A DNA stretch of 63,845 nt, filler included. It is 4 parts of 4 records of this genome, joined end to end, with 100 filler letters (N's around TTAATTAATTAA, not from the genome) between each part and the next. Parts side by side here need not be neighbours in the genome. Positions count along the whole stretch, not along the records: positions 19,286 to 38,160 come from SRR2962707_2172; 3 more parts are not named here. One strand, 5' to 3'. Shown here one piece after another: positions 3,234 through 40,388 of the stretch (position 1 is the first letter of the stretch; each line of letters opens with the position of its first letter). The notes under the pieces were generated by a model. That model had not been told where the DNA came from and made no database searches. It saw only the letters and a program-made list of their open reading frames with translations. The position numbers and the translations under genes were made by a program.

Positions 3234-4761
3234 AGCCCGCCGAATGGAAACCAGCCCTGAAACAGTCTTGAAGGCTCTTCTGGCGACCCCGTCTCCCGGC
3301 CCTCAATTGAGCGAGATCGGATCGGTGGCGGAAGTCGGTGACGGGATCGCCATTGTTACCGGGTTGGAGCGCGCCTTGTCTGACGAGTTGCTTCAATTCG
3401 CCAGTGGTGTGCAGGGCATCGTTCTTGATCTGGAGCCAGGGCGGCTGGGAGTTGTCCTTCTGGGACCGTCTGACCGTGTAACCGTGGGAGAGAGCGTCAT
3501 GCGCTCGCACAAGGTTGTCAGTGCGAAGGTTGGGCATACCCTTTTGGGTCGTGTTGTGGACGCACTTGGCAACCCGCTGGACAGCAACGGAGAAATCAAG
3601 TCGGAGACCACCCGTCCCGTTGAGATGGATGCGCCGAAAATTCTCGACCGGCAGGCCATTTCGCGTCCTCTGGCGACGGGCATCAAGGTGGTAGATGCAG
3701 CCGTACCCGTTGGTCTGGGGCAACGCCAGCTGGTGATCGGCGACCGGCAGACCGGCAAGACGTCGCTGGCCGTGGATGCAATCCTCAATCAGAAATCCAG
3801 CGATCTCATTTGTATCTATTGCGCTATCGGGCAACGTGGCGACGCTGTGGCCAAGGTGGTCGGGGCCATTCGCGATGGTGGGATGATGAAGCGCAGCATT
3901 ATCATGTCCGCTGGAGATGAAGATGCTGCCGGTCTTGCCTATGTCGCACCCTACGCAGCACTGACGATGGCCGAACATTTTTCTGCTGAGGGCCGGGATG
4001 TTCTGGTGGTGCTGGATGATCTCACCCATCACGCCCGGTCCTACCGTGAGCTCTCGCTGCTGTTGCGGCGGCCTCCGGGGAGGGAAGCCTTTCCCGGCGA
4101 TATCTTCTACATCCATGCCCGGCTGCTCGAACGCGCAGGTCAGTTTACGCAAAAAGCCGGCGGCGGCTCGATCACCGTGCTTCCGGTCGTAGAGACGCAG
4201 GCCGAGAACCTGTCTGCCTATATTCCGACCAACCTGATTTCGATCACTGACGGGCAGATCTATCTGTCGCCTCGTCTTGTGCGCAAGAACCAGTTTCCCG
4301 CCGTCGATCTGGGCGTGTCGGTTTCGCGCGTGGGTGGCAAGGCGCAAAGCAAAGCCTTCCGGTCTGTGGCCGGCAATCTTCGTGTGACCCTGTCGCAATT
4401 TGAGGAACTGGAGGATTTCGCCCGTTTCGGCACCCGGCTGGACGACGCGACCCGTGCGCGGCTGACACGGGGCGCTGCGGTCAGGGCGTCGCTGCGGCAA
4501 GCCGAGCGAGATCCGATTCCGGCGATCGAGCAGCTCGCTGTTCTGGTCTCGGCCATGGATGGAGGCTTTGACGGCTTGAGTGAGGCCGATACCTTCCGGG
4601 TCATGACGGCCATCAGAACGGCCGCCGCGCGTGAGTTGGACGATGTTGCAAAGCGGATTTCGCAAAATGCAGCCATTGATGACGATGACCGCAAGCGGAT
4701 GATCGGGTTCGGACAAATCGCGCGCCGTGCCCTGGAGGAGCAAGATGGCGCAAACCCTTGA
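3223..4761 (+). CDS. atpA: F1 subunit alpha
   Basis: GDRQTGKT Walker [25 protein letters not shown]. Confidence 0.98.
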
Positions 4762-10891: not shown

Positions 10892-12583
10892 ATGACAGTC
10901 GCAACACAATTACCGGGATCGGTTTTGGCCCCGGAGAGAGAATTTTATGCGCCAGTCCCTGTTCATTCACGGCAGCGTTGTATGACCGAACACTTTTCAC
11001 TACTCAACCGATTTGTATCGCCTATCCGCAGACCAGAACGCCTTGGCAGGCGGCCTTTGTCCATGCTGGTTTGCAGCCTGGCTGCAAGTGTCCTGCTCGC
11101 CTCGTTGGGTCCTGTGGCTGCCGCAGACGGCGCTGATTTTCCGGGTGTCCGTGACGACCTTACTGCCAAGGACCGCAAACGGGTTGAACAGGTGGTTCAG
11201 CCTGCGACGACGTTTCAAGCTCCCGAACAGTTCGAACGGATGCAGGGCGGCGCTGGCACATCCACCAAGCTGGTCAATCGCGATGCACTGTCGCAATTCA
11301 ATGCCAATCTGACATTCGAGCAAGAGGAAACCTTCAAACTCGGCAACGCCTTGTTCCGCAAGCTTTGGGTGTCATCCCCCTCGTCGACATTGGCATCAGA
11401 CGGTCTCGGACCTCTTTTCAACGCACGCGCATGTCAGAGTTGTCACATCAAGGATGGCCGTGGGCATCCGCCCGAAGGTGCAGCGGACGCCACCTCGATG
11501 TTTCTTCGTCTGGCGCGTCCCGCACGCACTGATGAAGAGCGCCGGGCGCTGGAAGATTTTCTGGTCGCCTCGCTACCTGACCCCACCTATGGCGGGCAGT
11601 TGCAGGATTTGGCAGTGCCCGGCCTGAAGGCCGAAGGCCGCATGGTGATTGCTTACCAGGAACAACCGGTTGAGCTGGCTGACGGCTCTGTCGTGTCCTT
11701 GCGCAAACCGAGCTACAGCGTCGAAGACCTGGGTTTCGGCCCGCTTGATCCGGAAACCACACTTTCACCACGCATGACGCCGCAGATGATTGGTATGGGG
11801 TTGATCGAAGCCATTCATCCGGCCGATATCCTGGCGCATGCTGATCCTGAAGATCGCGATGGCGATGGTGTCTCCGGCCGTGTCGCCATGGCCCGCGACC
11901 CCGCCACCGGCAAGCTTGCCCTCGGGCGGTTCGGCTGGAAGGCCCAAAATGCGACAGTGCGCCAGCAATCCTCCGGTGCTTTTGCCGGTGATATCGGAAT
12001 TTCCACGCCAGACGATCCGGCAAGCCATGGTGATTGCACGCTCCATCAAGCCGAGTGCATGGCGCTGCCCACGGGAGTGCAGTTGGACCTTGGGCAAACC
12101 GAGGCGCCTGATCCGGTGCTCGGTCTGGTAACATTCTACTCCCAGAACCTGGCTGTTCCGGCGCGTCGAGATGTGGACGCTGCCGAAGTATTGGCCGGCA
12201 AGAAGATATTTTACGATCTTGGATGCGCCACCTGTCATGTCCCCAAATATGTCACATCCCGGAAAGCCGCGACAAAGGCACACCGGTTTCAGCTGATCTG
12301 GCCTTACTCCGACTTTCTGTTGCATGACATGGGTGAAGGCTTGGCAGATGGCCAGCAGGTCGGCTCAGCCAATGGCCAGGAGTGGCGCACACCGCCGCTT
12401 TGGGGCACTGGCCTGACTGAAATCGTCAATGAGCACACGTTTTTTCTCCATGACGGGCGTGCACGCAATCTGACTGAAGCCATCCTCTGGCATGGCGGCG
12501 AAGCGGAAAATGCGCGGGATGGATTTACCGGGCTGGAAAAGACAGATCGGGACAACCTTCTCAAGTTTCTGGAAAGCCTGTGA
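10892..12583 (+). CDS. Di-heme oxidoreductase family protein (DUF1111); true start probably downstream (10982 or 11063)
   Basis: DGLGPLFNARACQSCH and CATCH (two CxxCH); GRFGWKA; WRTPPLWG; LHDGRARN..EAILWHGGE. Confidence 0.93.
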   Translation: MTVATQLPGSVLAPEREFYAPVPVHSRQRCMTEHFSLLNRFVSPIRRPERLGRRPLSMLVCSLAASVLLASLGPVAAADGADFPGVRDDLTAKDRKRVEQVVQPATTFQAPEQFERMQGGAGTSTKLVNRDALSQFNANLTFEQEETFKLGNALFRKLWVSSPSSTLASDGLGPLFNARACQSCHIKDGRGHPPEGAADATSMFLRLARPARTDEERRALEDFLVASLPDPTYGGQLQDLAVPGLKAEGRMVIAYQEQPVELADGSVVSLRKPSYSVEDLGFGPLDPETTLSPRMTPQMIGMGLIEAIHPADILAHADPEDRDGDGVSGRVAMARDPATGKLALGRFGWKAQNATVRQQSSGAFAGDIGISTPDDPASHGDCTLHQAECMALPTGVQLDLGQTEAPDPVLGLVTFYSQNLAVPARRDVDAAEVLAGKKIFYDLGCATCHVPKYVTSRKAATKAHRFQLIWPYSDFLLHDMGEGLADGQQVGSANGQEWRTPPLWGTGLTEIVNEHTFFLHDGRARNLTEAILWHGGEAENARDGFTGLEKTDRDNLLKFLESL

Positions 12584-23088: not shown

Positions 23089-24033
23089 ATGCAACACTTG
23101 CAGGGATTACGTGCCTTTGTGTCTGTGGCTCGTGAGGGGAGTGTTTCCAGGGCTGCCGAGCGACTGCATCTGACACAGCCGGCCGTGAGCCTGAAGCTGA
23201 AACAGTTACAAGATGATCTTGGCCTCAGGCTTTTTCGGCGTAAGCCGCAGGGTTTGGTGCTGAGTGCTGATGGTCACAACCTGTTGCCGGTGGCCGAAAA
23301 GGCGTTGGCGGGGATAGCTGCATTTGAGCAAAGCGCCCAGGCATTGCACAGCACTGTTCGTGGACGCCTTAAGATTGGCACCATCGTGGATCCGGAATTT
23401 ATCCGTCTGGGGTCGTTTCTACACCAATTGGTGGCTCGCGCGCCCCAACTTGAAACCGAGCTGCATCAGGGAATGAGTGGCCGGGTTCTGGAACAGGTTC
23501 GTAATGGCAGCCTGGACGTTGGTTTTTTTCTTGCCCCGCCAGGTCTGGGCGCTGGACAGTCATCGCCAGAGTTAATGTACAGAGAGCTGACCCGGTTTGA
23601 CTATCACGTTATTGCACCGGCGGGATGGGCGTCACGGGTGGCGGACAGTCGCTGGTCGAGCCTCGCCGGGCTCCCGTGGATCGTGACACCGCCGGATTCA
23701 GTGCACAATCGGTTATTGGCTGACGCAATGGAGCCTCATGGATTGGTTCCAAATGGCGTTGCACAGGTCGACCAGGAAGCCTGCATGCTGGACCTGGTCA
23801 GGGCGGGCGTCGGGCTCAGCCTGGCCCGGGATGCCCTGGCGATGGCAGAGCGACAGGAACGGGGGCTGGTCGTTGTGGAAGGCGTGCGTATCCCCTGTGC
23901 CCTGAGTTTTATCTGGCGCAAGGACCGTGAGGAGGAGCTGGTGATTGCAGAGGCGCTGGAGGCTCTTGCCGGTGTGTGGTTGTTTGAGACTCTTGATGAC
24001 ATCGACCGTGAAAATCGGCCCATTAGCCCGTGA
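23089..24033 (+). CDS. LysR-family regulator divergent from mmsA-GMC
   Basis: SVSRAAERLHLTQPAVSLKLKQLQ HTH. Confidence 0.95.
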   Translation: MQHLQGLRAFVSVAREGSVSRAAERLHLTQPAVSLKLKQLQDDLGLRLFRRKPQGLVLSADGHNLLPVAEKALAGIAAFEQSAQALHSTVRGRLKIGTIVDPEFIRLGSFLHQLVARAPQLETELHQGMSGRVLEQVRNGSLDVGFFLAPPGLGAGQSSPELMYRELTRFDYHVIAPAGWASRVADSRWSSLAGLPWIVTPPDSVHNRLLADAMEPHGLVPNGVAQVDQEACMLDLVRAGVGLSLARDALAMAERQERGLVVVEGVRIPCALSFIWRKDREEELVIAEALEALAGVWLFETLDDIDRENRPISP

Positions 24034-25016: not shown

Positions 25017-25889
25017 ATGGACGATCAGAAACTGACGATGCTGGTTACGGCTTTTATTGTGGTTACCGCCCTTTGGGAGGTAGTCAGCGGCCGTACCCGT
25101 GAAGGTCGCAAGAACACGCAGGACTGGCGCATGGCATTTCTTGCCACGTTCATGATGGTGGCGGTGCAAAGGCCGTTGGTGTTGCTGTTGCTGACGCTGG
25201 GTCTGTCAACGCTGATTCCTGGCAGCGCCGGTTCACTGGCCTGGCTCGAACAGGCGTATTTCTGGCCCACGTTGATCGTGTTTTTCTGCGTGGAAGAGTT
25301 TATCCACGGCAGTTTCCACCTGTTTGCCCACCGGCGCCGACCCAATAACCGTGTTCTGCAATGGGTTCAGGCGTTTTACAAGATGAGCCACCGCCCGCAC
25401 CACATGTCGGGCGGCCAGGACAACAAGGGCCAATTGACGGTAACGCAGACCTTCGTCAATGGCTGGGCCTGGTGGCTGATCATGCCCAACTACACCTTCC
25501 AGTTGCTGTGTCTTTATCTGGGGCTGGTAGAGGTGTTCCTGATTGCCACCGCCTTCAAGGGACTATGGGCGGCCCATACTCATGTGAACTGGAATTATGA
25601 CCTGTATTTCCACAACCACCGCTGGGCCTGGGTTCGCAAGACCATGTGGGCACTGGCGCATATTCTGGTCTTTCCCACTCAGCACCACCATCATCACGCC
25701 CGCGGGCCCAATTCAGCCAAGAATGTGACCTCCACGCTGGCGATTTACGATTGGCTGGTGTTTGGCACCCTCGCCATTGAAACCAGCAAACCCAAGGTCT
25801 ATGGCTGGCGCCAGAAAGACCACGAGGCAAACAGTGCATTGAAACGCTATTTCTGCTGGGATGTTCGACCCTACGTGCCAAAAACCTAG
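25017..25889 (+). CDS. Sterol desaturase/fatty-acid hydroxylase superfamily membrane protein
   Basis: TM helices; His boxes HGSFH, HRPHH, HTH, HHHHH; YDWLVFGT. Confidence 0.85.
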   Translation: MDDQKLTMLVTAFIVVTALWEVVSGRTREGRKNTQDWRMAFLATFMMVAVQRPLVLLLLTLGLSTLIPGSAGSLAWLEQAYFWPTLIVFFCVEEFIHGSFHLFAHRRRPNNRVLQWVQAFYKMSHRPHHMSGGQDNKGQLTVTQTFVNGWAWWLIMPNYTFQLLCLYLGLVEVFLIATAFKGLWAAHTHVNWNYDLYFHNHRWAWVRKTMWALAHILVFPTQHHHHHARGPNSAKNVTSTLAIYDWLVFGTLAIETSKPKVYGWRQKDHEANSALKRYFCWDVRPYVPKT

Positions 25890-25905: not shown

Positions 25906-25930
25906 GGAATAAACGCCAGGCTCAGCCGTC
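25906..25930 (+). promoter_or_regulatory. Putative ECF-sigma promoter 1
   Basis: GGAAT-aaacgccaggctcag-CCGTC (N15), 48 bp before ATG 25978. Confidence 0.7.
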
Positions 25931-25977
25931 TCCCTGATGAAAGCCACCCGAAACGGGTAAATCAGGAGGACGTAACC

Positions 25978-26490
25978 ATGAAAAAGCATGTACTGACACT
26001 CGCAATCTGTTCCATTCTTTCCACCGGCGTTTTCGCCGCAGGAGGGTCTGGCGCGGCCAATGCAAACGCGCAGGCTGAAACCAACATGAGTGCGGAAGCT
26101 AGCACCCGCAACGGTGTTTCCGCGAATGGTGGTGCCTCTGCAAGCGCAGAGGGCAGTGTCAACGGCGAAGCCGCTCGAGACGAAGCTGCCGACCAACGCC
26201 AGGCGGCCAGTGAAGAAGCCCGCGGAAGGGCCGATCAGGCGGTCAGCGCTGGCGTTGAAACCGGCCAGAAGGTGCGAGCAACCGCCGATGCTACAGCGGA
26301 CACGGCTCGCGATGAAGCTGGTGAGAAGCGCGAACAGGCGCAAGAGCGCATGAACGAGACCCGAAATGCTGAAATTCGCGCTGAAACCAATCAGCAGATC
26401 GGAACGTCTGTATCTGAGAGCGTCCGGAGTGAAGTGCAGAACTCCGTCAAGGGGACCGTGAAAGGGTCCGGCAGTGGTGGCCTGCTATAA
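25978..26490 (+). CDS. Secreted Ala/Glu/Ser/Gln-rich low-complexity protein
   Basis: AGGAGG RBS; Sec signal MKKHVLTLAICSILSTGVFA; mature chain has no F/W/Y/H/C/P. Confidence 0.85.
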   Translation: MKKHVLTLAICSILSTGVFAAGGSGAANANAQAETNMSAEASTRNGVSANGGASASAEGSVNGEAARDEAADQRQAASEEARGRADQAVSAGVETGQKVRATADATADTARDEAGEKREQAQERMNETRNAEIRAETNQQIGTSVSESVRSEVQNSVKGTVKGSGSGGLL

Positions 26491-26506
26491 CCACTCCTCC
26501 AGACTC

Positions 26507-26534
26507 GCCGGGCCATAGGGCCCGGCTTTCTTTT
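26507..26534 (+). terminator. Intrinsic terminator/attenuator between the secreted protein and barrel genes
   Basis: GCCGGGCC-ATAG-GGCCCGGC followed by TTTCTTTT. Confidence 0.7.
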
Positions 26535-26559
26535 GGACGCCCAAGTGAAAGGAGCAGAC

Positions 26560-27528
26560 ATGCAGTTGATTCAACGTATTTTGACCTTGCCCCTGGCCAT
26601 TGGCCTGGCGTCACCGGTATTAATGGTTCAGGCGCAGGAGAAAGCGTCAGCGAACGGATATCTTGAAGGCGGTTACGAGCACGACAGCAACGTGACCGTG
26701 GATGAACTGAACACGTCCGCCGATGAGAGCGATCAGGCCTGGGTTTTCGACGCCGGTCTGGAAGGCATCCTGAAACCCACCGAGCGGTTAAACGTGACGC
26801 TCGGCTATTCGCTCTCGGGCAGACGGTACCAGAACCTTGATGAATTCGATCAGGACATTCACCTGCTGTCGGCCGATGTCAGTTATGACTTCGACCCGGT
26901 CACCGTTGGCACCAGTTACTACTATTCCCACGCAACCCTGGGGTCAGACCCGTTCCTCGATTTCCGGCGTGCCAGTGTCTATCTGGGCAGCCTGCTCGCG
27001 GAGGACGTTTATCTGCGTGGCAGCCTGCAGGACAAGCGCAAGGAATTTGATGACAGTGATGCGCGGGATGCCGAGATAAAAGGCGCCAGTCTGGATGCGT
27101 TCTTCTTTTTCAACCAGGCCCAGAGCCACTTTCTACTCGGCCTTGACGGTGATCGCGAAGATGCGGAGGCGAAAGCCTACGACAATGACCTGCTTCGCGT
27201 TCGGGTAGCGTTGGTGCATCGGTTTATCCTGGCCGGCGAGGAAAACCGCCTGCGGTTTGGCTGGCGTTACGAGGACAGGGAGTATGAAGAGGTGACCGTC
27301 ACCAGTACCAGCCCGGTTCTGACGGACCCTCTGACCGGTGACCTTACCGAACGCTCAAGCAATGAGCGGGCGGACAAAGCCCGTATTCTGGAGGCCAGCT
27401 GGCGGATTGGACTCAACGAGGTGTTTAGTGTTGAGCCCAGTGTTTCCTGGGGCCAGTACACCTCGAACGTGGATTCTGCGGATTACGACAAGACGGTGGC
27501 GGGGGTGACGCTCAGGGCGGATTTCTGA
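26560..27528 (+). CDS. Outer-membrane beta-barrel protein (possibly DUF560/Slam-like barrel)
   Basis: AGGAG RBS; signal peptide; GGYEHDSNV first strand; alternating amphipathic strands; C-terminal VTLRADF. Confidence 0.8.
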   Translation: MQLIQRILTLPLAIGLASPVLMVQAQEKASANGYLEGGYEHDSNVTVDELNTSADESDQAWVFDAGLEGILKPTERLNVTLGYSLSGRRYQNLDEFDQDIHLLSADVSYDFDPVTVGTSYYYSHATLGSDPFLDFRRASVYLGSLLAEDVYLRGSLQDKRKEFDDSDARDAEIKGASLDAFFFFNQAQSHFLLGLDGDREDAEAKAYDNDLLRVRVALVHRFILAGEENRLRFGWRYEDREYEEVTVTSTSPVLTDPLTGDLTERSSNERADKARILEASWRIGLNEVFSVEPSVSWGQYTSNVDSADYDKTVAGVTLRADF

Positions 27529-27538
27529 AACCCGACAG

Positions 27539-28873
27539 TCAGAAATCCAGAAAGCCGTGACCGAATTCGGTGTCCCGGCCAGGACGGCCAAGATCCTTCG
27601 CTGCATTGATCAGGGCACCAATGGCCTTGTCTTCCGAAAGTTCATTACGTTGGCAGGCCAATGCAGCGGCAACCACTGGCGACGCCAGCGAGGTGCCGCT
27701 GTCTGCAACCATGCCGGCATCAGGGTGTGCTACCGGAACGGTGACGCCGTTGCTGGCAAACATCACCTGTTCACCCCGATTGGCCCAGCGGTAGAGCTTC
27801 CCGGAACTATCAGCCGCCGTCACACCGATCACTTCCGTGTAGGCGGCCGGATATAGTGGCGGGGCAGAGGGCCCTTGATTGCCTACCGCCGCAACCATCA
27901 GCACGCCGCGCTCCCTGAGGCGGCTCACCGCCGCGGCGAGAAGCTGGTTGTCCGGGCCGGTCAGGCTGATGTTGATAACCGACAAATCCTGACCGGCCAG
28001 CCAGTTCAGGCCTTCCAGTAAATGACCAAGTGTGGCGCCTGAGAGGGTGCGATCCCGGTCATAGAACACCGAGGCATTGAAGATCGTAGCCTGCGGCAGC
28101 CGGGCAGGCCATTGCCCAGGCCGGTTTCCCACCAGCAGGCTGGCGACGGCCGTGCCGTGAATTGCCGGCTCAGTCAGTGTTCCGTCCACTTCCGCCAATG
28201 CCAGAAAACGCTCCTGCACAACCTGTGCATTTTCAAATACCCGATGGTCTGTGGCAATGGACGTATCCACCATTCCAACGCGAACCGGGGCGGTGCAGAG
28301 GCTACGCCACTGTGGCACTTTGGTCTCTGACAGGGGCTCTTTCGCACCCGTTTGCGGAGCATAGATATGGTTGCGGTCCAGCCGATCCGCGAGTTCTGGT
28401 AGGGCGTCCTGTAGGGCATTATGGGAATCCAGCTCGGCAGTGACCCGGAACCGCACCACGGTCATACCCAGGCCGGTCAGCTCTCGGCGTTCGAGAACTG
28501 TGATCCCCGGCTGGTCAAGGCGGGCGAGTTCCGCAGCGGTACCGGTCACCAGCCACTGACCTTCCACGGCACGGAAACCGTCGTCCAGTTGGATATCATT
28601 GAACGCTTTCTGTCCCTGACGCGTGAGAATGGGAAGGACTGACGGTAACGCTTCGAGCTGTTCCATGAGCTCTGTGGCCTGTGTGTTGATCTGCTTCTCA
28701 AGGCGACGGTCCATGGCCTGCTCCACCATGCGCTGTGTCTTCTGTTCAACCTGGCGGGTTATCGGATCTATCTGGCCGCTGGTTACGTCACCGACACCGA
28801 TGGACAAGGCCGGTGCGGAAAGCGTGCAAAGAGCGATTGCAGGGAACAAGTGTCTCAAGAGAAAAGGTTTCAT
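27539..28873 (-). CDS. Secreted S8 subtilisin-family serine peptidase
   Basis: Signal peptide; triad VGMVDT / HGTAVA / SGTSLASP; AAVGN oxyanion Asn. Confidence 0.93.
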   Translation of the reverse strand: MKPFLLRHLFPAIALCTLSAPALSIGVGDVTSGQIDPITRQVEQKTQRMVEQAMDRRLEKQINTQATELMEQLEALPSVLPILTRQGQKAFNDIQLDDGFRAVEGQWLVTGTAAELARLDQPGITVLERRELTGLGMTVVRFRVTAELDSHNALQDALPELADRLDRNHIYAPQTGAKEPLSETKVPQWRSLCTAPVRVGMVDTSIATDHRVFENAQVVQERFLALAEVDGTLTEPAIHGTAVASLLVGNRPGQWPARLPQATIFNASVFYDRDRTLSGATLGHLLEGLNWLAGQDLSVINISLTGPDNQLLAAAVSRLRERGVLMVAAVGNQGPSAPPLYPAAYTEVIGVTAADSSGKLYRWANRGEQVMFASNGVTVPVAHPDAGMVADSGTSLASPVVAAALACQRNELSEDKAIGALINAAKDLGRPGRDTEFGHGFLDF

Positions 28874-28910
28874 CGTGCCCGTCCGATTAAAGATGTGTGT
28901 CATACGATAC

Positions 28911-28935
28911 AACGGCCCGGCGGAAAAAAAATTCC
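28911..28935 (-). promoter_or_regulatory. Putative ECF-sigma promoter 2 (S8 gene)
   Basis: Minus strand GGAAT-tttttttccgccggg-CCGTT (N15). Confidence 0.7.
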
Positions 28936-28944
28936 TTCGTTCAT

Positions 28945-28969
28945 GGAATAAATCGGTTTCACGACCGTT
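28945..28969 (+). promoter_or_regulatory. Putative ECF-sigma promoter 3 (autoregulatory)
   Basis: GGAAT-aaatcggtttcacga-CCGTT (N15) upstream of the sigma gene. Confidence 0.7.
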
Positions 28970-29000
28970 TTACCGATAACACCTTTGGAAATGGAAGGCT

Positions 29001-29492
29001 ATGAAAGAGGAAATCACCGAACTATTACCAAGGCTCCGACGATTCGCCTACTCGTTGACCGGCTCCCTGTCAGACGCCGACGACCTGCTACAGAATACGG
29101 TGGAGCGTTTGTTGACCCGGGACATGCCGGACGACGCCGACCTTACCAAGTGGGCATTCCGGGTTTGCCGTAACGTCTGGATAGACGAGTGTCGCGCGCG
29201 TAAGGTTCGGCGGGACGCCGCGGAACATCCGGAGTTGACGGATGGCCAGGTGATCAATGGCGAGCACCAGACCACCAAAGAGATCGAATGGCACCGAGTG
29301 GACGCTGCGATGGCAAGATTGCCACAGGACCAACGCCAGATTATCTCCCTGGTGGCAATCCAGGGCATGCCCTACAAAATCGTGGCTGAGATTCTGGAAG
29401 TGCCCAAGGGTACGGTGATGAGCCGGCTGGCCCGAGCCAGGGTGGCATTAAGCGAGGCCCTGGCGCCTGTAACCATGAGGACCGATTCATGA
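29001..29492 (+). CDS. ECF RNA polymerase sigma factor
   Basis: LPRLRRFAYSLTG..DADDLLQ (region 2); AEILEVPKGTVMSRLARAR (region 4). Confidence 0.95.
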   Translation: MKEEITELLPRLRRFAYSLTGSLSDADDLLQNTVERLLTRDMPDDADLTKWAFRVCRNVWIDECRARKVRRDAAEHPELTDGQVINGEHQTTKEIEWHRVDAAMARLPQDQRQIISLVAIQGMPYKIVAEILEVPKGTVMSRLARARVALSEALAPVTMRTDS

Positions 29493-30214
29493 AGATGACT
29501 GATGAAACCCTGTCGGCTTTCCTCGATAACGAACTGACCGACGCGGAAATGGAAGCGGTTCGGGACCAGATTGAGAAGGATCCAACGCTGGCAGATCGAC
29601 TGGCCGAGATGGCGTCCGTGGATGCCGAACTACAGGCGCATTACGGCTCGATCGATGACCGTCCCATGCCGGCATCAATTACCCGAATGCTGGAGGAAAA
29701 GGCCTCCCGGAGTGCTGCGCCCGCGCAGGACAATGTGGTCACTTTTCCGTGGTGGCGCAGGCTGCCCGGCCACACGGGTAAAGCGATCGCCGCCGCTATC
29801 ATCGCGGGGGTGGCGCTGACACAATGGCTGACGGTAGCAACGGACGGCGATCCGATGTCGCCCGCGGTAGCGAACGTTCTGGATAGCCAGCTCAGTGGCG
29901 AGGTTTACCAGGTTAATGACCAGACAAGCCTGACGCCGAGACTGACGTTCCAGAGCCAGGCCGGCCAATGGTGCCGTCAGTTCCGCCTGGAGACGCAAAC
30001 GTCCGCGTCGGAGCAAATTGCCTGTCGCACTGGCGAGGGTTCCTGGGAACAGGTGGCCACTGCCGAAGCAGAGCCTTCCCTGGCACCTGATGTATACCAG
30101 ACAGCGAGCGGTGGCAGTGTGCTTGACGAGGAACTGGACCGGATGATGGCCACGCCCCCCGTTGGGCCGAACCAGGAGCGTGCGTTGCTTGAACAGCAGT
30201 GGAGGCGTAATTAA
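29489..30214 (+). CDS. Transmembrane anti-sigma factor
   Basis: DETLSAFLDNEL anti-sigma N-terminus; one TM; periplasmic domain with WCRQF..IACR Cys pair; ATGA overlap with sigma. Confidence 0.88.
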   Translation: MKMTDETLSAFLDNELTDAEMEAVRDQIEKDPTLADRLAEMASVDAELQAHYGSIDDRPMPASITRMLEEKASRSAAPAQDNVVTFPWWRRLPGHTGKAIAAAIIAGVALTQWLTVATDGDPMSPAVANVLDSQLSGEVYQVNDQTSLTPRLTFQSQAGQWCRQFRLETQTSASEQIACRTGEGSWEQVATAEAEPSLAPDVYQTASGGSVLDEELDRMMATPPVGPNQERALLEQQWRRN

Positions 30215-32217: not shown

Positions 32218-35200
32218 CTAGTTGGTGCTGAACCGGCGCCGACCCCATCCCATCATAAACAGCAGGGCCAATAACGGCCAGGACATGCTACCGCCGCCAC
32301 CGCCTGACGATGAGTCGTCAGAGGCCGAGCCGGAGGAAATGGAGTTGTCCACTTGCTGGACGTTGTAGGCCGACAGCTCGGCGTCCGGATCAAGGGAGCT
32401 GTAGATCCGCCCCACACCCTCCGCAAAGGCCTCAATTTCAAAAGTATTGTCCAGAAGCTGTCCATCCATGGTGATACGGGTTTGTCTGAGTGTGACCAAC
32501 ACGGCACGCGGCTCGCCGTCTACGCTGGTTGTGGACTCCTCAATCAATTCAATGGTCGTGGTGAAATTGACCTGATTGCCCTGCCGGCCATTGATGTAGC
32601 TGGAGAGGGTGGCACGTGAAGTGACATTCGTGCCCAGCTCAAGCGAGCTGGGGATCATTAGCAGACCATCCCCGTAGGTGATTCGAATCCGATCTCCTTC
32701 CGAATCAACAAACCGGCTTTCAAGCAGATAGACGCCAGTAGTACGACGTACCAGGCGGTCATCGCCATTTGGGAAAATGAACTTGAACATACCTGCGCCG
32801 CTTATGGATTCGCTTCGGAACTGGTAGCCATCCGATGGGTCGGAGAAAACCCAGGTGATGTCCCCCAAGGGGAAAAAGTCCATCGTATTGTGGGTGGGAA
32901 AGTCGTCAGAAACGTCGGGATTGTAACCGGAGGCGACTTCTGAGGCGTTCGTGGCGCCGTCACCGTCATAGTCCTGGGACGCATCATCGGGATTGTATGG
33001 GTCGAGCGCCAGATACTGGTCTTCCAGCGAGTCTGGCAGGCCGTCTCCATCGGAATCGCGGTTGGGATCGTCTGGATCCGGCTCCGGATGAGCACCTGCA
33101 GTAAATGCCAGGTTATCAATCCAGATGGCATCGTCGTAGGAGGAGACGGAGCTGTCCTTGTCGTAAGAGAATCGAATTACGGTGGTACCGGCAGGCACCG
33201 AAATGCTCACCCTACGCCACTCCGGGGTAGAGCCGGAATGGCTTCGGCTAAAGAATTGTTGGCTGCCATTGGTGTATATCCGCAGGTAATCGCAGCAGCG
33301 CTCTGTTGACTCGCGGTAGTCCAGTTCCAGGGTTCCCGCAGGCAAGGGCGTTTCAAAGACCCATTCGATACTGCTTTCCTGATTGTCATCAATAGCGCCT
33401 GAACGCAGGCTGAACTGACCTTCGGAGGCCTGCTGGGAGTCAACGCTCCAATCGGCGTTGCTGGAAACAGAAACGTTGAAATCGTCGGGTACGACACCCA
33501 GTTCAAATCCTTCGCGATAGGGTGTGTCCGCAGGATAATCCTCTTCATCGATCATGGATGTACCGTTGAGGTACTCGCTCAGATTGCTGTAACCGTCTGC
33601 GTCCAGGTCTTCCTGGGCATCGGCACTGTCAAAGGGATCCAGTCCCACTGCGAGTTCGTCTGTGTCGGGGATGCCGTCGTTGTCGGAATCATTGTCACAG
33701 GCGTCGCCAAACTCATCGCCATCATGATTGTCTTGATTGGCATTGGCGGTGTTGGGGCAGTTATCTTCGAGGTCAAACAGCCCGTCGTCGTCAGTGTCCG
33801 CTGTGAAATCGAGTACTGAGATGTCAGGCCCCCCGCTTGCGGCCATTTCAATCGCCACCAGGTGGGCGCCATAGGCCAGAATACGGGTGTCCAGGGCATC
33901 GAATATAGAGTTCTCTTCAAGGAGCTCGTAGTTGTCGGACCAGGTTTGCAGCACGGCATTGCCATCAACTGCTGCAATGGTGTGGAGGGTACCTCCCGTC
34001 CAGGCGGCGTCTGTTATTTCATTGGACAGATAGTTGAGTTCGGCGAGGGAATAGGCGTCGTGGAGCTTGCCTCCGCCGGTCAGCAGCAATTGGCCTGCAG
34101 GGTCGAAGTGCAAAGGTGCGGCTGCGTAGCCGCTGCTGTGATAGGGGGAGTCGCCCTTGCTGCCCAAAAGCCCGGTGGTTGAGCTCAGCTCGGACCATTC
34201 AATGTCATTGGGCGATGTTCCGGACCGGAAGTGATAGATACGCTCGGTGACAGGATTCCATAGGTATTCTGAGCTGGCGTGCCGCCATTCAACGGAGTCC
34301 ACCATTGTTCCGGATGCGTCAAAGCTGTAGAACCGCTCCCAGGCACCGGAGGCATCCACCGCAAAGAGATAATCGCCTGCGGATTCCAGACCCAGAACAC
34401 TTTGTGGCAGGTTGGTGAACGGAGTTTCCTGAAGTGTCCCGGTGGACATGACTATCTGGCTGATCTTTCCACCAGTGTAGCCCAGGTAAAGTCGCCCATG
34501 GGCTGGGGAATACGTCATCCACGTGGGTGGGTTCAGCAGGCCGATGCTGTCAACATAGGTTTGCGTTTCCGCCGACCAGATGTGAATGGCCAGTGTCTCC
34601 CGGTCGGCCAGATACAACAGGCCTTCCTGGCTGTCGAACTCGATGAAATCCGGGATGAAATCCGAAGTTTCCGGATTGGGGGGCTCGCCTGGTGATGGCG
34701 TGGCAAGACTGTCGAGGTCCAATACTTCAACACCGATCTGACTGCTGTTCTCGTAGAAAGCAAAGACAGCGTCACCGTAGCTGGCAATTTTCAGAGGTTG
34801 CTGGTTGAGGCCCATCTGAGCCACTTCCAGCATGGCGTTGTTGTATTGATGAACGGTATTGCCACGGAGCACCAGCAGGTCGCCCTGCCAGAAAGTCATA
34901 TCGTCAAACGCGCCAGCAAGGCTGCCGGCGTAGGTCAGGTCGTTGGCGAAATAAAGGATGCCCTGATTGTCGAGTACGCGACTTTCATCCGGGAACAGGT
35001 AAAGTTGACTGGCACTGGGATAATCTCCGTGGGCGGGGCTGTCCATATCGCTCCCCATTGTGCCATCCGCATTGAGTGGGATTTTAACAATATCGGACGG
35101 TGAAGTGCCGTCTGACCGATAGTACAGCGCTGACTGTGCTGGTGATCCCACAGATCCGGTCCCCCTGTAGAAAACCGTTTTTTCTTCTATGAGTGTGTAA

Positions 35201-35592
35201 TCTGACAGGTTCCGAGCCATGACCCGGTTGAAACCCTGTACCAGATAAAGGGCGTTTCCTACCGCATGGAGTGCCGTCATGTCTTCGCCGGTGTTGGCAA
35301 TGAAAGTCGGTGTCTGCGAATCGAGATCTATTGCGTAGGCACTGCGCCGATAGGCCACATACAGATTGTTACCCTGAATTTCTGCGGCTGTTGGTACGTT
35401 ATTGAGGGGAATATCCGACAACATGGATTGCGACACCATGTCGTAGCGGACGACTTTATTCGGGGCAGCGAAAGTGAAATAAATCACACCATCGTCCTGG
35501 TCGATATCAACCAGCGCAGCGTGAGAAACGGTCGAAAAAAAGCAAAAACACACCAGAAAGAACGCTTTCAGCGCCTTTGGAGAATGTCGCAT
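32218..35592 (-). CDS. Large secreted surface protein with duplicated beta-propeller-like modules, TSP3-type Ca-binding repeats and GlyGly-CTERM anchor
   Basis: Signal peptide; DTDDDG..DNCP, DSDNDG and DSDGDG repeats; C-terminal SSSGGGGGSMSWPLLALLFMMGWGRRR. Confidence 0.85.
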   Translation of the reverse strand: MRHSPKALKAFFLVCFCFFSTVSHAALVDIDQDDGVIYFTFAAPNKVVRYDMVSQSMLSDIPLNNVPTAAEIQGNNLYVAYRRSAYAIDLDSQTPTFIANTGEDMTALHAVGNALYLVQGFNRVMARNLSDYTLIEEKTVFYRGTGSVGSPAQSALYYRSDGTSPSDIVKIPLNADGTMGSDMDSPAHGDYPSASQLYLFPDESRVLDNQGILYFANDLTYAGSLAGAFDDMTFWQGDLLVLRGNTVHQYNNAMLEVAQMGLNQQPLKIASYGDAVFAFYENSSQIGVEVLDLDSLATPSPGEPPNPETSDFIPDFIEFDSQEGLLYLADRETLAIHIWSAETQTYVDSIGLLNPPTWMTYSPAHGRLYLGYTGGKISQIVMSTGTLQETPFTNLPQSVLGLESAGDYLFAVDASGAWERFYSFDASGTMVDSVEWRHASSEYLWNPVTERIYHFRSGTSPNDIEWSELSSTTGLLGSKGDSPYHSSGYAAAPLHFDPAGQLLLTGGGKLHDAYSLAELNYLSNEITDAAWTGGTLHTIAAVDGNAVLQTWSDNYELLEENSIFDALDTRILAYGAHLVAIEMAASGGPDISVLDFTADTDDDGLFDLEDNCPNTANANQDNHDGDEFGDACDNDSDNDGIPDTDELAVGLDPFDSADAQEDLDADGYSNLSEYLNGTSMIDEEDYPADTPYREGFELGVVPDDFNVSVSSNADWSVDSQQASEGQFSLRSGAIDDNQESSIEWVFETPLPAGTLELDYRESTERCCDYLRIYTNGSQQFFSRSHSGSTPEWRRVSISVPAGTTVIRFSYDKDSSVSSYDDAIWIDNLAFTAGAHPEPDPDDPNRDSDGDGLPDSLEDQYLALDPYNPDDASQDYDGDGATNASEVASGYNPDVSDDFPTHNTMDFFPLGDITWVFSDPSDGYQFRSESISGAGMFKFIFPNGDDRLVRRTTGVYLLESRFVDSEGDRIRITYGDGLLMIPSSLELGTNVTSRATLSSYINGRQGNQVNFTTTIELIEESTTSVDGEPRAVLVTLRQTRITMDGQLLDNTFEIEAFAEGVGRIYSSLDPDAELSAYNVQQVDNSISSGSASDDSSSGGGGGSMSWPLLALLFMMGWGRRRFSTN

Positions 35593-35877
35593 ACAACGTT
35601 CCCTGTTTAAGTGACTGGACAACGATACTGAACGCGGATCAGGCGTTCTTCACACACATCACGTGCGTCGTGCACGGTATGATGTTAATTGATTAAGGAT
35701 AGTTAATCATCCGCGGCATTAACTTGATAGATGTCTCATTGGGGAAACCCCAGTCTGTTGATTCTCCACTGAAGGTTCTGTTCATTCATGCAAATACAGC
35801 TATCACATTTGTGGAATATCTGTTCGTTTTTGAAAGGGGTAGTCTGAATTCACTGAAACACGAAGGAGAATTCAGAC

Positions 35878-38318: not shown

Positions 38319-40388
38319 CTATTCTACTTTGAAAGTATCCTCTGCAATATCTTGGTTTACCAACACCTCAGATGCTTTCATCTCGATCTTCTGTGGACCC
38401 ATTGTCTGTTTCAATGTATGTGGAAACATAACACCATTCACTTCTTTATAATCCAGATAATCAACGGTTTGAGTAAACGCACCTTGTGGTGTTTCTGTCG
38501 TTTTACTATATCTGGTTTTTAATCCAGTATTTACGTCGAAATAAACTGTATAGTTGTTTCCTTTAGACAATTTAACATCAACGGCGTATGCATCGCTACC
38601 ATTTACTTCCTCTATGGCAGACAGCTTCAATTCTGCTCCGAGTTCTTTTAAAGCTAGCTCACTAAAAAGGGCATTTGAAATCACTTGTTCTTCAATGGTT
38701 GCTTCATCTAGAGTAGGCTTATTCCCCATCTGGGCGATTGAAGCAGTCTGTCCATCAGAAACGCTGGACATCACAGTCATTCCTCCCATTCCAACACTCG
38801 TATTTGCTTTCATACCCTTTGCCATTATTTGGGTCATTTCAAGCTGCCTACCCATCATTTCTCCAGACATTTTGATAGTCACGTTTTCAATTTTGCTGAT
38901 TGCGTTCTCACCACCTAATGCTTTCTTATAATCAGCAATGACTTTTTCTGCAGTCAGTCCTTCTGGCAACTTAGCCAATGATGGATCCACCTCATTTCCA
39001 TACGTATCGTAGTATGTCAGCGTGCCAAATTCTTTTAGCTTCTCTGAAACCTCGCTGGCTTTACCCACCACATTGATGTAGGCTTTTTCAGGGCTGAGAT
39101 ATTTCTGCGCAGTAGCTTTTACATCTTCGATGGTAACCGCCTGTACTTTCTGAAGATACGTATTATAATAATCCTCAGGAAGGTCATAGATGGCAGTATT
39201 TAAGGCAAAATTTGCTACGGTTTGAGGTCTTTCCAGTGACTGGGAGAAACTACCTGAGATAGAATTCTTCGCTAGTTCAAGCTCCTCCTCAGTGATCTCA
39301 CCATTTCTCATCTGCTCCATTTCATAGATCATCTGGACGATTGCACTATCAGTAACTTCATTTCGTACTTCAGCATTTGCGGTAAATCGAGAAACCAACT
39401 CATCAGAAGAAAGTGAAGAACGGCTACCATAGGTATACCCTTTGTCCTCTCTCAAGTTCATGTTTAGCTTCCCAGAGAATCCACCACCCAGGATTTGATT
39501 CATTACCCTCACCTTTATTTCATCCTCAGAACCTACCTCCAGTTTTACCGGGTAAGTAATGTTAATCACTGATTGCACTGAAGCCGACCGATTCACTAAA
39601 CTAACCTCGGTTTTTTCCGGTGCCTGAGGCATCTCAAAGGTTGGCATTGGAACTTCGCCTTGCTCCCAGCTTCCGAAATAGGTTTTTACCATTTTTTTCA
39701 TCTGCTTAGGATCCACATCACCAACAATCGCCAAATAAGAAATATTTGGTTTGAAGAAAGTTGAATGATAATTTTTCAAATCTTCAACTGAGATATTGTT
39801 TGTTGTCTCCTCTGTCTGAATCTCACCATAGGGGTGATCTTTTCCATAAACAATGGCCTGATTTAAATTCCCCGCAATAGCATTCGGATCATCCTTGGCT
39901 GAAGCCAGCCCGGAGAGGGTCTGCTTTCTGATTTTCTCCAGTTCTTCTTCAGGAAAGGTTGGATTGAAAGCCACATCAGTCATCAGTTCCATGATTTTTT
40001 CCTGATATTTCGATAGTCCCGATGCAAACACATTCGTTGATCCAGCGAAAACTGAAGCACCAATAAAATCAATCTCCTCATCCAACTGCTCTTTGTTTCG
40101 GGTCTCCGTTCCGCGCATCATCATCTGACCAACCATGCTCAGGTATCCAACTTTATCTTCTTCCAAAAGTGGTTCACGATCTACCAGAAGATTGAAACTC
40201 ACTCTTGGAAGTTTGTGATTCTCGATGATAAAAACTTTCAGTCCATTCTTCAATTCGAATGTTTCATATTCCCCAATGTTGATTGGTCTTGGGGTTGCCG
40301 GTTCCGGCAATTTGCTCCGATCCACCTGTGCAAAAGCACCTACTATTCCGATGGTCAGAAAGAGGGTAAGTATATTTCTTAAGTTCAT
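38319..40388 (-). CDS. M16B peptidase non-catalytic partner with extra C-terminal domain
   Basis: LKNGLKV; no HxxEH; LNMNLREDKGYTYG (R/Y pair); about 210-aa beta-rich extension. Confidence 0.9.
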   Translation of the reverse strand: MNLRNILTLFLTIGIVGAFAQVDRSKLPEPATPRPINIGEYETFELKNGLKVFIIENHKLPRVSFNLLVDREPLLEEDKVGYLSMVGQMMMRGTETRNKEQLDEEIDFIGASVFAGSTNVFASGLSKYQEKIMELMTDVAFNPTFPEEELEKIRKQTLSGLASAKDDPNAIAGNLNQAIVYGKDHPYGEIQTEETTNNISVEDLKNYHSTFFKPNISYLAIVGDVDPKQMKKMVKTYFGSWEQGEVPMPTFEMPQAPEKTEVSLVNRSASVQSVINITYPVKLEVGSEDEIKVRVMNQILGGGFSGKLNMNLREDKGYTYGSRSSLSSDELVSRFTANAEVRNEVTDSAIVQMIYEMEQMRNGEITEEELELAKNSISGSFSQSLERPQTVANFALNTAIYDLPEDYYNTYLQKVQAVTIEDVKATAQKYLSPEKAYINVVGKASEVSEKLKEFGTLTYYDTYGNEVDPSLAKLPEGLTAEKVIADYKKALGGENAISKIENVTIKMSGEMMGRQLEMTQIMAKGMKANTSVGMGGMTVMSSVSDGQTASIAQMGNKPTLDEATIEEQVISNALFSELALKELGAELKLSAIEEVNGSDAYAVDVKLSKGNNYTVYFDVNTGLKTRYSKTTETPQGAFTQTVDYLDYKEVNGVMFPHTLKQTMGPQKIEMKASEVLVNQDIAEDTFKVE

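Follow-up and report, generated by a model that had tools for sequence, protein, structure and literature searches.

The systems closest to the locus considered here belong to two separate literatures. One concerns extracytoplasmic function (ECF) sigma factors of group ECF26, for which Casas-Pastor et al. (2021, PMC7826278) give a -35 element GGAATAAA, a -10 element GTT and an anti-sigma factor with one membrane span encoded at position +1, and list a subtilase at position -1 in subgroups s4, s10, s14 and s27. ECF26 sigma factors with a divergent subtilase are widespread, and overexpression of one of them, RpoE6 of Sinorhizobium meliloti, induced the divergent serine protease gene SMa0142 (log fold change 4.7), ecfR6, SMa0146, SMa0148 and SMa0139; even to RpoE6, in the authors' account of it, no role could be assigned (Lang et al. 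2018, PMC6180224). The other literature concerns the DUF560 or Slam barrels of type 11 secretion, a family of ten sequence clusters in which cluster 1 alone has verified cargo and the others are expected to have "as-yet-unknown cargo" (Grossman et al. 2021, PMC8406197), and all verified cargo is marked by an 8-strand barrel domain at its C-terminus (TbpBBD/lipoprotein C; Grossman et al. 2025, PMC12282271). In a window of 63,845 bases (the whole stretch of DNA that was analysed, filler included) from what near-identical proteins and loci indicate to be a Marinobacter, positions 25906 to 30214 hold five genes that join these two literatures, each of which has held half of the module without a function.

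The cassette, which encodes a small secreted protein, a DUF560 barrel, a subtilase, an ECF sigma factor and its anti-sigma factor, is a five-gene accessory module of marine Marinobacter. Its core is already known as ECF26 with a subtilase, and its barrel as a catalogued, uncharacterised DUF560 member. New, in that we did not find them in print, are the strict coupling of cluster-4 barrels to the ECF26-protease core, the pro-subtilisin nature of the protease as predicted by structural models, and what appears to be one tetrad repeat, carried in Marinobacter by the small protein and in the Halieaceae by the pro-region of the protease. We lean, with modest confidence, towards reading the module as an accessory, self-contained ECF26-family regulon whose barrel would export or anchor tetrad-repeat proteins. 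A literature search found no article linking DUF560 or type 11 secretion with ECF sigma factors, and the terms "ECF", "RNA polymerase" and "cluster 4" are absent from the main text of the 2025 type 11 cargo paper (PMC12282271), its supplements being outside the search. The features of the locus are these:

25906..25929, plus strand: ECF26-type promoter of the small-protein gene, GGAATAAA ... CCGT (exact pattern match, conserved)
25930..25977, plus strand: conserved 5' leader of the small gene, with outer stem CCUG/CAGG and inner hairpin ACCCG-AAA-CGGGU (21 leaders aligned)
25978..26490, plus strand: small secreted hydrophilic protein of 170 aa, predicted from its open reading frame (ORF)
26507..26534, plus strand: terminator-like hairpin of eight G-C pairs followed by a T-run, between the small gene and the barrel gene, conserved in position
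26560..27528, plus strand: predicted outer-membrane beta-barrel of 322 aa, DUF560/Slam family, with a C-terminal Phe (PF04575 match, AlphaFold2 model, cluster-4 orthologues)
27539..28873, minus strand: predicted pro-subtilisin of 444 aa, with signal peptide, helix, prodomain-like and catalytic domains (PF00082 at 89.6 bits, AlphaFold2, Foldseek)
28912..28935, minus strand: ECF26-type promoter of the protease gene, GGAATTTTTTTT ... CCGT (exact match, conserved)
28945..28968, plus strand: ECF26-type, probably autoregulatory promoter of the sigma/anti-sigma operon, GGAATAAA ... CCGTT (exact match, conserved)
29001..29492, plus strand: ECF sigma factor of 163 aa, ECF26-like (RpoE6-like), with Sigma70_r2 and Sigma70_r4_2 domains
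29489..30214, plus strand: anti-sigma factor of 241 aa, with a class-I-like N-terminal domain, a single hydrophobic span and a periplasmic Cys-pair domain (sub-threshold zf-HC2/RseA_N; alignment of 40)

The ECF26-type core and its promoters

The sigma factor has the minimal sigma2-sigma4 ECF architecture, with both domains above cut-off (Sigma70_r2 at 44 bits, Sigma70_r4_2 at 57 bits), and is 39% identical (E 3e-33) to RpoE6, the sigma factor of the protease locus on S. meliloti plasmid pSymA and a member of ECF26s14; its best NCBIfam model, PRK12511, scores below the cut-off of that model. The start of the anti-sigma gene overlaps the sigma stop codon, and the divergent S8 protease gene lies 128 bp upstream of sigma, at position -1. 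The anti-sigma factor has one hydrophobic span at about residues 96-116, as read from the sequence and the alignment. The HxxxCxxC motif of zinc-finger anti-sigma factors was not found in it (zf-HC2 at 18.1 bits, below the cut-off of 22.2, and no His or Cys in the first 60 residues), yet its N-terminal domain still aligns with that of S. meliloti EcfR6; over the full length the two proteins are 26% identical (E 2e-9), including a periplasmic C-R-x-F ... A-C-R motif. In an alignment of 40 sequences the periplasmic domain (29840-30211) keeps C162 and C179 invariant within C-R-x-F/Y ... A-C, and it has a sub-threshold match (E 0.044) to the 17-kDa antigen family PF16587. The 17-kDa antigen and DUF1194 are both listed in the genomic context of ECF26s12 (PMC7826278), and DUF1194 is the top co-occurring family of the cluster-3 DUF560 barrels (PMC12282271); ECF26 and DUF560 may be linked more than once, via DUF1194. 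Judged by sequence, the core of sigma factor, anti-sigma factor and divergent subtilase matches group ECF26 and is homologous to RpoE6-EcfR6-SMa0142. A preliminary description of this DNA had stated that no functional description of the module was known, which was too strong, as the core is a described ECF26 arrangement and the regulon of RpoE6 has been shown experimentally.

The protease is predicted to be a catalytically intact pro-subtilisin zymogen. Its AlphaFold2 model (predicted local distance difference test, pLDDT, 83.6) consists of an amphipathic helix at residues 35-74, a compact, prodomain-like domain at 79-172 that folds at pLDDT above 90, and a catalytic domain at 198-444. The top Foldseek matches are to unprocessed pro-subtilisin E and pro-Tk-subtilisin, over 372-410 columns as against about 258 for mature subtilisins, and since these alignments take in the prodomain, the enzyme is probably made as a zymogen; a search of the prodomain gave no match to Pfam I9. 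Profile matches in the PDB extend down to E 1e-41 for subtilisin BPN'. Asp203, His239, Asn332 and Ser395 are invariant in 40 aligned protease sequences, and from the motifs DT, HGT, GN and GTS we take D203, H239 and S395 to be the catalytic triad and N332 the oxyanion residue, as is usual for the family.

The likeness to S. meliloti extends to the layout of the locus and its regulation. There, too, the protease is divergent from sigma, the promoters read GGAATA(A/G)A ... CGT, with four GGAATA-N15-CGT sites at the pSymA locus against 0.03 expected, and the regulon is small and local. A small secreted protein made of an (NSSS)n tetrad repeat lies behind its own motif, adjoining the anti-sigma gene. 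The proteases of pSymA and of a Paracoccus plasmid are 37-39% identical to ours over the prodomain and catalytic domain, but their pro-regions carry poly-Asp/Gly tracts and not Val tetrads, neither locus has a DUF560 barrel, and the other local targets differ, being DUF6065 and a glyoxalase-type enzyme in S. meliloti and an alpha/beta hydrolase in Paracoccus. As to the small pSymA gene itself, positions 3724-4182 (L108, CP140933.1) are annotated as a plus-strand hypothetical protein with an acidic Glu/Leu repeat. The ECF26 motif at 4137-4160 on the minus strand follows closely on the anti-sigma gene and faces an ORF of that same strand, which would encode a signal peptide and about 17 N-S-S-S units; the annotated strand of 3724-4182 may be wrong.

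The pattern GGAAT-N15-CCGT has three matches in the window, at 25906-25929 (+), 28912-28935 (-) and 28945-28968 (+), and none elsewhere; the two central sites stand back to back, 9 bp apart. They lie 48 nt upstream of the small-gene ATG (25978), 38 nt upstream of the likely protease ATG (28873, minus strand) and 32 nt upstream of the sigma ATG (29001). For the protease we prefer the ATG at 28873, since the alternative TTG start at 28912, which gives a longer protein, would lie across the -10 element. The three sites occupy the only three suitable intergenic positions, all correctly oriented, and the site upstream of sigma, GGAATAAATCGGTTTCACGACCGTT, fits the published ECF26 -35 and -10 elements; two further copies are present in the window, and all three are conserved. 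Relaxing the spacing adds only two sites in the window, at 23394 (+) inside a LysR-type gene and at 38783 (-). The preliminary description was thus right that the same motif with the same spacing precedes each transcription unit. Its count of three transcription units is fair as far as the three promoters go, and needs the qualification that the first, small gene plus barrel, probably has an attenuator within it. The barrel gene has no motif of its own and must therefore be transcribed by read-through from the small gene.

It might be objected that three copies of so short a motif arose by chance and that the genes are not co-regulated. In 100 dinucleotide-preserving shuffles of the window the mean number of matches was 0.64, and three or more were reached in two of them, so the count by itself is mildly unusual and is weak evidence; placement and conservation carry the argument. 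Conservation was scored with GGAAT-N15-17-CGT in a scan of one genome per species, seeded by the barrel, which gave 58 loci: 35 are of Marinobacter, and the other 23 belong to Halieaceae, Cellvibrionaceae and unnamed Gammaproteobacteria. Among the Marinobacter loci the sigma promoter is present in 32 of the 33 that hold the region, the lone miss reading GAAAT, the protease promoter in all 32 where the sigma promoter was located, and the small-gene promoter in all 34 that hold its region. Outside Marinobacter the sigma promoter was found in 20/20 loci and the protease promoter in 19/20, the miss reading TGAAT; both misses are single-base changes in the -35 element. The sites are kept in relatives from 98% down to about 27% barrel identity, while flanking DNA diverges. 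The motif, moreover, fits the published ECF26 consensus (PMC7826278), and equivalent promoters have been mapped in S. meliloti (PMC6180224). We therefore reject the chance reading on conservation and give it next to no probability.

The genes also travel together. Among 41 related genomes, 25 of the genus and 16 of other families, the barrel occurs in nine of the genus and in none of the other families; the protease is in the same nine, and neither query matched the remaining 16 of the genus. In all nine the order and orientation of the five genes are constant and the flanking genes differ. The protease query had one further match outside the genus, in another family (G026), distant, barrel-less and differently organised; it was rejected as an instance of the module, as its sigma, anti-sigma and protease genes are co-directional and lack the motif and the repeats. 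Over the 58 loci the barrel has an adjacent protease in 56 and sigma and anti-sigma genes in 53, all of the misses falling at contig ends, and a subtilase is present in 53/53 loci that hold the sigma gene. Cluster-4 barrels, in other words, adjoin the ECF26-protease core in every locus with enough DNA.

To gauge the reach of the sigma factor we scanned three complete or near-complete genomes of relatives with the stricter pattern GGAATWWW-N13-CGT, using the reversed pattern as control. The scan gave 16, 7 and 8 sites against 6, 1 and 6, and the only sites common to all three genomes are the three at this locus; the extra sites, most of them within ORFs, differ from genome to genome. To the extent that a pattern search can show it, the regulon looks local. 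Several expectations of the preliminary description are borne out here: the five genes co-occur, the motif is conserved, and the data fit an autoregulated ECF sigma factor with a small local regulon. Two of the extra sites are intergenic and precede, respectively, the gene for a putative lipoprotein of 351 aa (G006) and an ORF of 471 aa (G003).

The barrel, the small protein and the tetrad repeat

The barrel matches PF04575 (DUF560, "surface lipoprotein assembly modifier") at 34.2 bits against a cut-off of 22, over profile positions 31-286 of 288. Its AlphaFold2 model (pLDDT 85.9, predicted template modelling score 0.78) has 14 strands and begins at about residue 29, directly after the signal peptide. 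The corresponding locus of M. algicola DG893 is 96-97% identical to that of the window, and the orthologues from that strain and from M. salarius were placed in cluster 4 (105 sequences) of a published sequence similarity network, without the tetratricopeptide repeat (TPR) signature IPR011990 (PMC8406197). Barrels of the Halieaceae, including that of the strain behind our locus L058, are in cluster 4 as well (PMC8406197, Table S1). By profile and orthology the barrel is a homologue of Slam and not just an analogue, and the layout that had been called merely analogous to Slam has to be redescribed in this respect. With Slam1, NilB and HrpB it shares DUF560 above threshold, a 14-strand topology (here predicted) and an adjacent gene for a Sec-dependent secreted protein; unlike them it belongs to cluster 4, has neither TPR nor a neighbour with the 8-strand domain, and stands under ECF control and outside any TonB or metal-uptake context.

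The feature that varies in an informative way is a repeat, which we searched for as at least six consecutive units of [VIL] plus three polar residues. One ORF in the whole window matches, that of the small protein, whose C-terminus carries (I/V-x-x-x) x6 at residues 141-164, and in the Marinobacter loci it is likewise the small protein only. Halieaceae-type loci lack a small gene upstream of the barrel, and there the pattern matches the protease alone, over 24-180 residues of an N-terminal extension; acidic V-E-x-x repeats lengthen the pro-region by 150-250 residues in these loci. Both proteins carry the repeat in locus L051, of the Cellvibrionaceae. Small-protein and protease repeats align pairwise (E 5e-6 and 0.026), and helix 35-74 of the Marinobacter protease shows, by eye, the same four-residue hydrophobic spacing without satisfying the strict pattern. 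The three barrel-less protease loci examined, a small number, have no tetrad repeat and carry poly-Asp/Gly or Pro/Ala tracts instead. Since the barrel persists where the small gene is absent, the small protein would not be its only partner, and its constant secreted neighbour is the pro-protease; since the repeat is common to all candidate partners, we propose that the barrel handles tetrad-repeat proteins.

The small protein has a signal peptide with likely cleavage after VFA. A conserved cysteine at position 11, in "LAIC", would be a non-canonical lipobox too near the N-terminus, and a signal-peptidase-I site after VFA/AFA fits the sequence better than a lipoprotein reading. The mature part of 150 residues is 21% Ala, 12% Gly, 11% Glu and 11% Ser, has no aromatics, Cys or Pro, a pI of 4.73 and a grand average of hydropathy (GRAVY) of -0.86; between species its middle is variable and its C-terminal 50 residues are conserved. 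Two Marinobacter loci (L023:10676-11021 and L032:13854-14391) have a second copy of the small gene, 65-67% identical, about 4 kb downstream of the module, with a variant of the ECF26-type promoter, GGAACAAAAACC...CCGT, in front of it.

Downstream of the small gene, a GC-rich stem at 26507-26526 is followed by the T-run TTTCTTTT. A terminator scan of the region found four candidates against a shuffle mean of 4.5, which is not above expectation, and the hairpin is accepted on conservation alone, being at the same place in 19/19 Marinobacter sequences examined, the window included; it is likely to be an attenuator. Upstream, the leader of the small gene has an outer stem that includes the leading GG of the Shine-Dalgarno sequence. 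Over the 21 aligned leaders 79% of cells are paired (90% in helix 1), against 15-45% with slid partners, and one U-A pair is changed to G-C or G-U in four sequences, a hint that translation may be controlled.

With its small, low-complexity secreted subunit produced in excess, its barrel and its protease, the module recalls the layout of a Fap-like functional amyloid or fibre system of subunit, barrel and peptidase. Little else in the locus agrees with it. None of the five proteins matches a Fap family in Pfam or NCBIfam, the barrel is DUF560, the protease is an S8 pro-subtilisin and not a C39 peptidase, the small protein is highly charged and Ala/Glu-rich without aromatic or Gln/Asn-rich imperfect repeats, and Halieaceae-type loci retain the barrel without the small gene. 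We consider a fibre system of this kind very improbable.

A less exotic function would be protection of the envelope without dedicated export. The small protein might be a periplasmic hydrophilin, akin to late embryogenesis abundant (LEA) proteins, acting against osmotic, desiccation or cold stress, with the barrel as a channel or structural protein and the protease clearing damage as DegP does. The 12% Gly, the GRAVY of -0.86 and the lack of aromatics suit such a protein, and its own cluster in the ESM Atlas has been auto-named "Late embryogenesis abundant protein", which we treat as a lead only. The solved folds nearest to the barrel model are the 14-strand OmpG and CymA, which are monomeric channels, and the model shows no periplasmic domain. 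Targets of RpoE6 overlap the general stress regulon of S. meliloti in 27 of 40 genes (PMC6180224). Against this stand the constant company that the cluster-4 barrel keeps with the protease/sigma pair in every adequate locus, which is not expected of a generic porin, its above-threshold membership in the Slam family, whose characterised members are translocons, and the movement of the tetrad repeat between small protein and protease pro-region, which argues for a specific shared partner. On balance an envelope-protection role of this sort seems to us unlikely.

A proposed working of the module

On the export reading towards which we lean, the membrane anti-sigma factor would hold the sigma factor until a periplasmic event removes it, as the family would lead one to expect. 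The freed sigma factor would then read three promoters of the form GGAATAAA-N13-CGT(T/C), those of its own operon (giving positive autoregulation), of the divergent protease gene and of the small gene. The conserved hairpin after the small gene may let only part of transcription into the barrel gene, which would leave the small protein in large excess over the barrel. All products would go to the envelope: an acidic hydrophilic small protein, disordered or helical, a TPR-less 14-strand barrel and a subtilisin zymogen. The conserved partner of the barrel would be whichever protein carries the tetrad repeat, the small protein in Marinobacter and the protease pro-region in the Halieaceae, and the barrel would export or anchor such proteins at the cell surface. 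The protease may mature at the surface or in the periplasm and act on the small protein, on the periplasmic domain of the anti-sigma factor, or on both, in the second case as feedback.

Two known systems offer parallels to parts of this scheme. In the Escherichia coli sigma-E/RseA system a membrane anti-sigma factor has a periplasmic sensor domain, the sigma factor is autoregulated and a periplasmic protease is in the regulon (DegS, DegP). The module appears to share the membrane anti-sigma factor, the autoregulated sigma factor and the protease in the regulon, to which Halieaceae-type loci would add a candidate sigma-dependent small RNA; it differs in its ECF group and promoter, in having an S8 zymogen and not an HtrA-type S1 enzyme, and in a regulon apparently limited to one locus, and its anti-sigma N-terminal domain shows no more than sub-threshold similarity to those of RseA and MucA. 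In the subtilisin-type autotransporters SphB1 and NalP, a subtilisin reaches the surface through an outer-membrane barrel. The same logic would apply here by analogy if the subtilisin is delivered to the surface through the DUF560 barrel, with the differences that barrel and protease are separate genes and that DUF560 has 14 strands against 12 in the autotransporter domain.

Several observations weigh against the scheme. Characterised Slam proteins carry TPR, and our barrel has no TPR match in Pfam and no periplasmic domain in its model. According to the cluster survey (PMC8406197), none of the nine clusters besides cluster 1 includes a characterised protein, and no cluster-4 protein has been shown to secrete anything. 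The 8-strand barrel domain of verified cargo was absent in Pfam searches of the small protein (E up to 10) and of the protease, and the small protein has no family at all in Pfam or NCBIfam. Alphaproteobacterial modules do without the barrel, which is thus dispensable for the sigma-protease core. As the tetrad repeat is of low complexity, the likeness between small protein and protease does not prove common descent; moreover, in a processed protease the repeat is cut off with the prodomain and so cannot anchor the mature enzyme. Contigs from RNA libraries cover the region, with starts, ends and strand not readable from them. In two RNA runs a single contig of 80-87 kb spans everything and DNA carry-over is possible; in two runs of another study the contig depth is 122-288 over the small gene and proximal barrel and 5-10 over the protease, sigma and anti-sigma genes, the high-depth contigs extending into the upstream gene, and contig depth cannot rank genes. 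Finally, support for the feedback step is weak. A complex predicted between protease residues 27-444 and the anti-sigma periplasmic domain (118-241), run without alignments, scored 0.42 against 0.00 for the best of three controls, with at least 43% of contacts agreeing between runs and partner pLDDT of at least 76. The mark for this test is reached by 51/78 solved complexes and 2/108 mismatched pairs, and scores of 0.60 or less include 5/78 solved complexes and all four passing mismatches of 180; by the calibration of the tool, so weak a pass is false more often than true, except where the guess had been a likely one beforehand.

The same predicted complex bears on a different account, in which the protease is part of the signalling path and not of the output: as a dedicated site-1 protease it would cleave the anti-sigma factor in its periplasmic domain, and the small protein and barrel would modulate or report the signal. 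Since the sigma factor also drives the protease gene, such a switch would reinforce itself. Anti-sigma factors are known to be cut by regulated proteolysis, RseA by DegS and RsiW by PrsW, and protease, sigma and anti-sigma make up a trio that is invariant across Alpha- and Gammaproteobacteria, the remaining members being variable; the complex score, for what it is worth, points the same way. On the other hand, we know of no site-1 protease of an ECF system that is an S8 enzyme, a prodomain zymogen is typical of secreted degradative subtilisins, and positive feedback without a brake would lock the system on. Overexpression of RpoE6 alone induced its targets, an experiment that is silent on the need for the protease (PMC6180224). 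We hold this account to be possible, if doubtful, and return to export by the barrel.

A bolder form of the export reading is that cluster-4 barrels are a distinct type 11 branch that recognises an amphipathic (V/I-x-x-x)n helix in place of the canonical 8-strand barrel domain, the helix being borne by a separate hydrophilin-like protein in Marinobacter and by the propeptide of the co-encoded pro-subtilisin in the Halieaceae, and that this branch is hard-wired to an ECF26 switch whose periplasmic sensor domain the exported protease cuts. We offer this as a conjecture that is probably wrong in at least some part; if true, it would give type 11 secretion its first member with a defined regulator and a cargo signal that is not a barrel. 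When the families are compared, the tetrad repeat stands out as a specific candidate for a cargo feature, and the module offers a candidate regulator, three reporter promoters and two candidate cargoes in a harmless, culturable marine bacterium. The function of type 11 barrels outside cluster 1, and of ECF26-subtilase modules, thereby becomes experimentally approachable.

A candidate small RNA and neighbouring features

In 12 of the 23 non-Marinobacter loci (L055, at 11355-11627 on the minus strand, and L054, L056, L058, L059, L061, L062, L063, L065, L066, L071 and L074) the anti-sigma gene is followed closely by a third ECF26-type promoter, GGAATAA-N17-CGT, which points back towards that gene. 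The predicted transcript is conserved over 239-338 nt, with no conserved ORF and with an intrinsic terminator; RNAalifold gives 35 pairs, 14 of them changed on both sides, and we regard the transcript as a candidate sigma-dependent small RNA. Searches of the window region and of four Halieaceae-type loci gave no Rfam family at or above its gathering score, and a covariance model of the 3' domain recovered only its 12 training sequences, with none in the window, the Marinobacter loci or the Luminiphilus loci. The 5' end of this RNA (AAAG, a hairpin with a GUGAAAC loop, GAGG, 7 nt, GUG/AUG) resembles the leader of the Marinobacter small gene (GAUGAAAG, a GAAA-loop hairpin, AGGAGG, 7 nt, AUG), and it may be that the Halieaceae RNA is derived from a former small-protein mRNA.

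In M. salarius R9SW1 (L017/L033, genome G001, CP007152.1) the barrel, the protease, the gene upstream of the module (290 aa) and a Kef-type gene are each split into two frames within about 7 kb, so many breaks suggesting sequencing errors rather than decay. In the window that upstream gene (25017-25889, plus strand) encodes a 290-aa membrane protein with the His clusters HRRRP, HRPHH and HHHHH and without a Pfam or NCBIfam match at E up to 0.01; it adjoins the module only in the closest relatives and is therefore not counted as part of it. Beyond the anti-sigma gene, at 32218-35622 on the minus strand, lies a gene for a 1134-aa secreted protein with thrombospondin type 3 repeats (a sub-threshold Pfam match), which ends in a Gly run, a hydrophobic stretch and an Arg cluster, resembling a C-terminal sorting signal.

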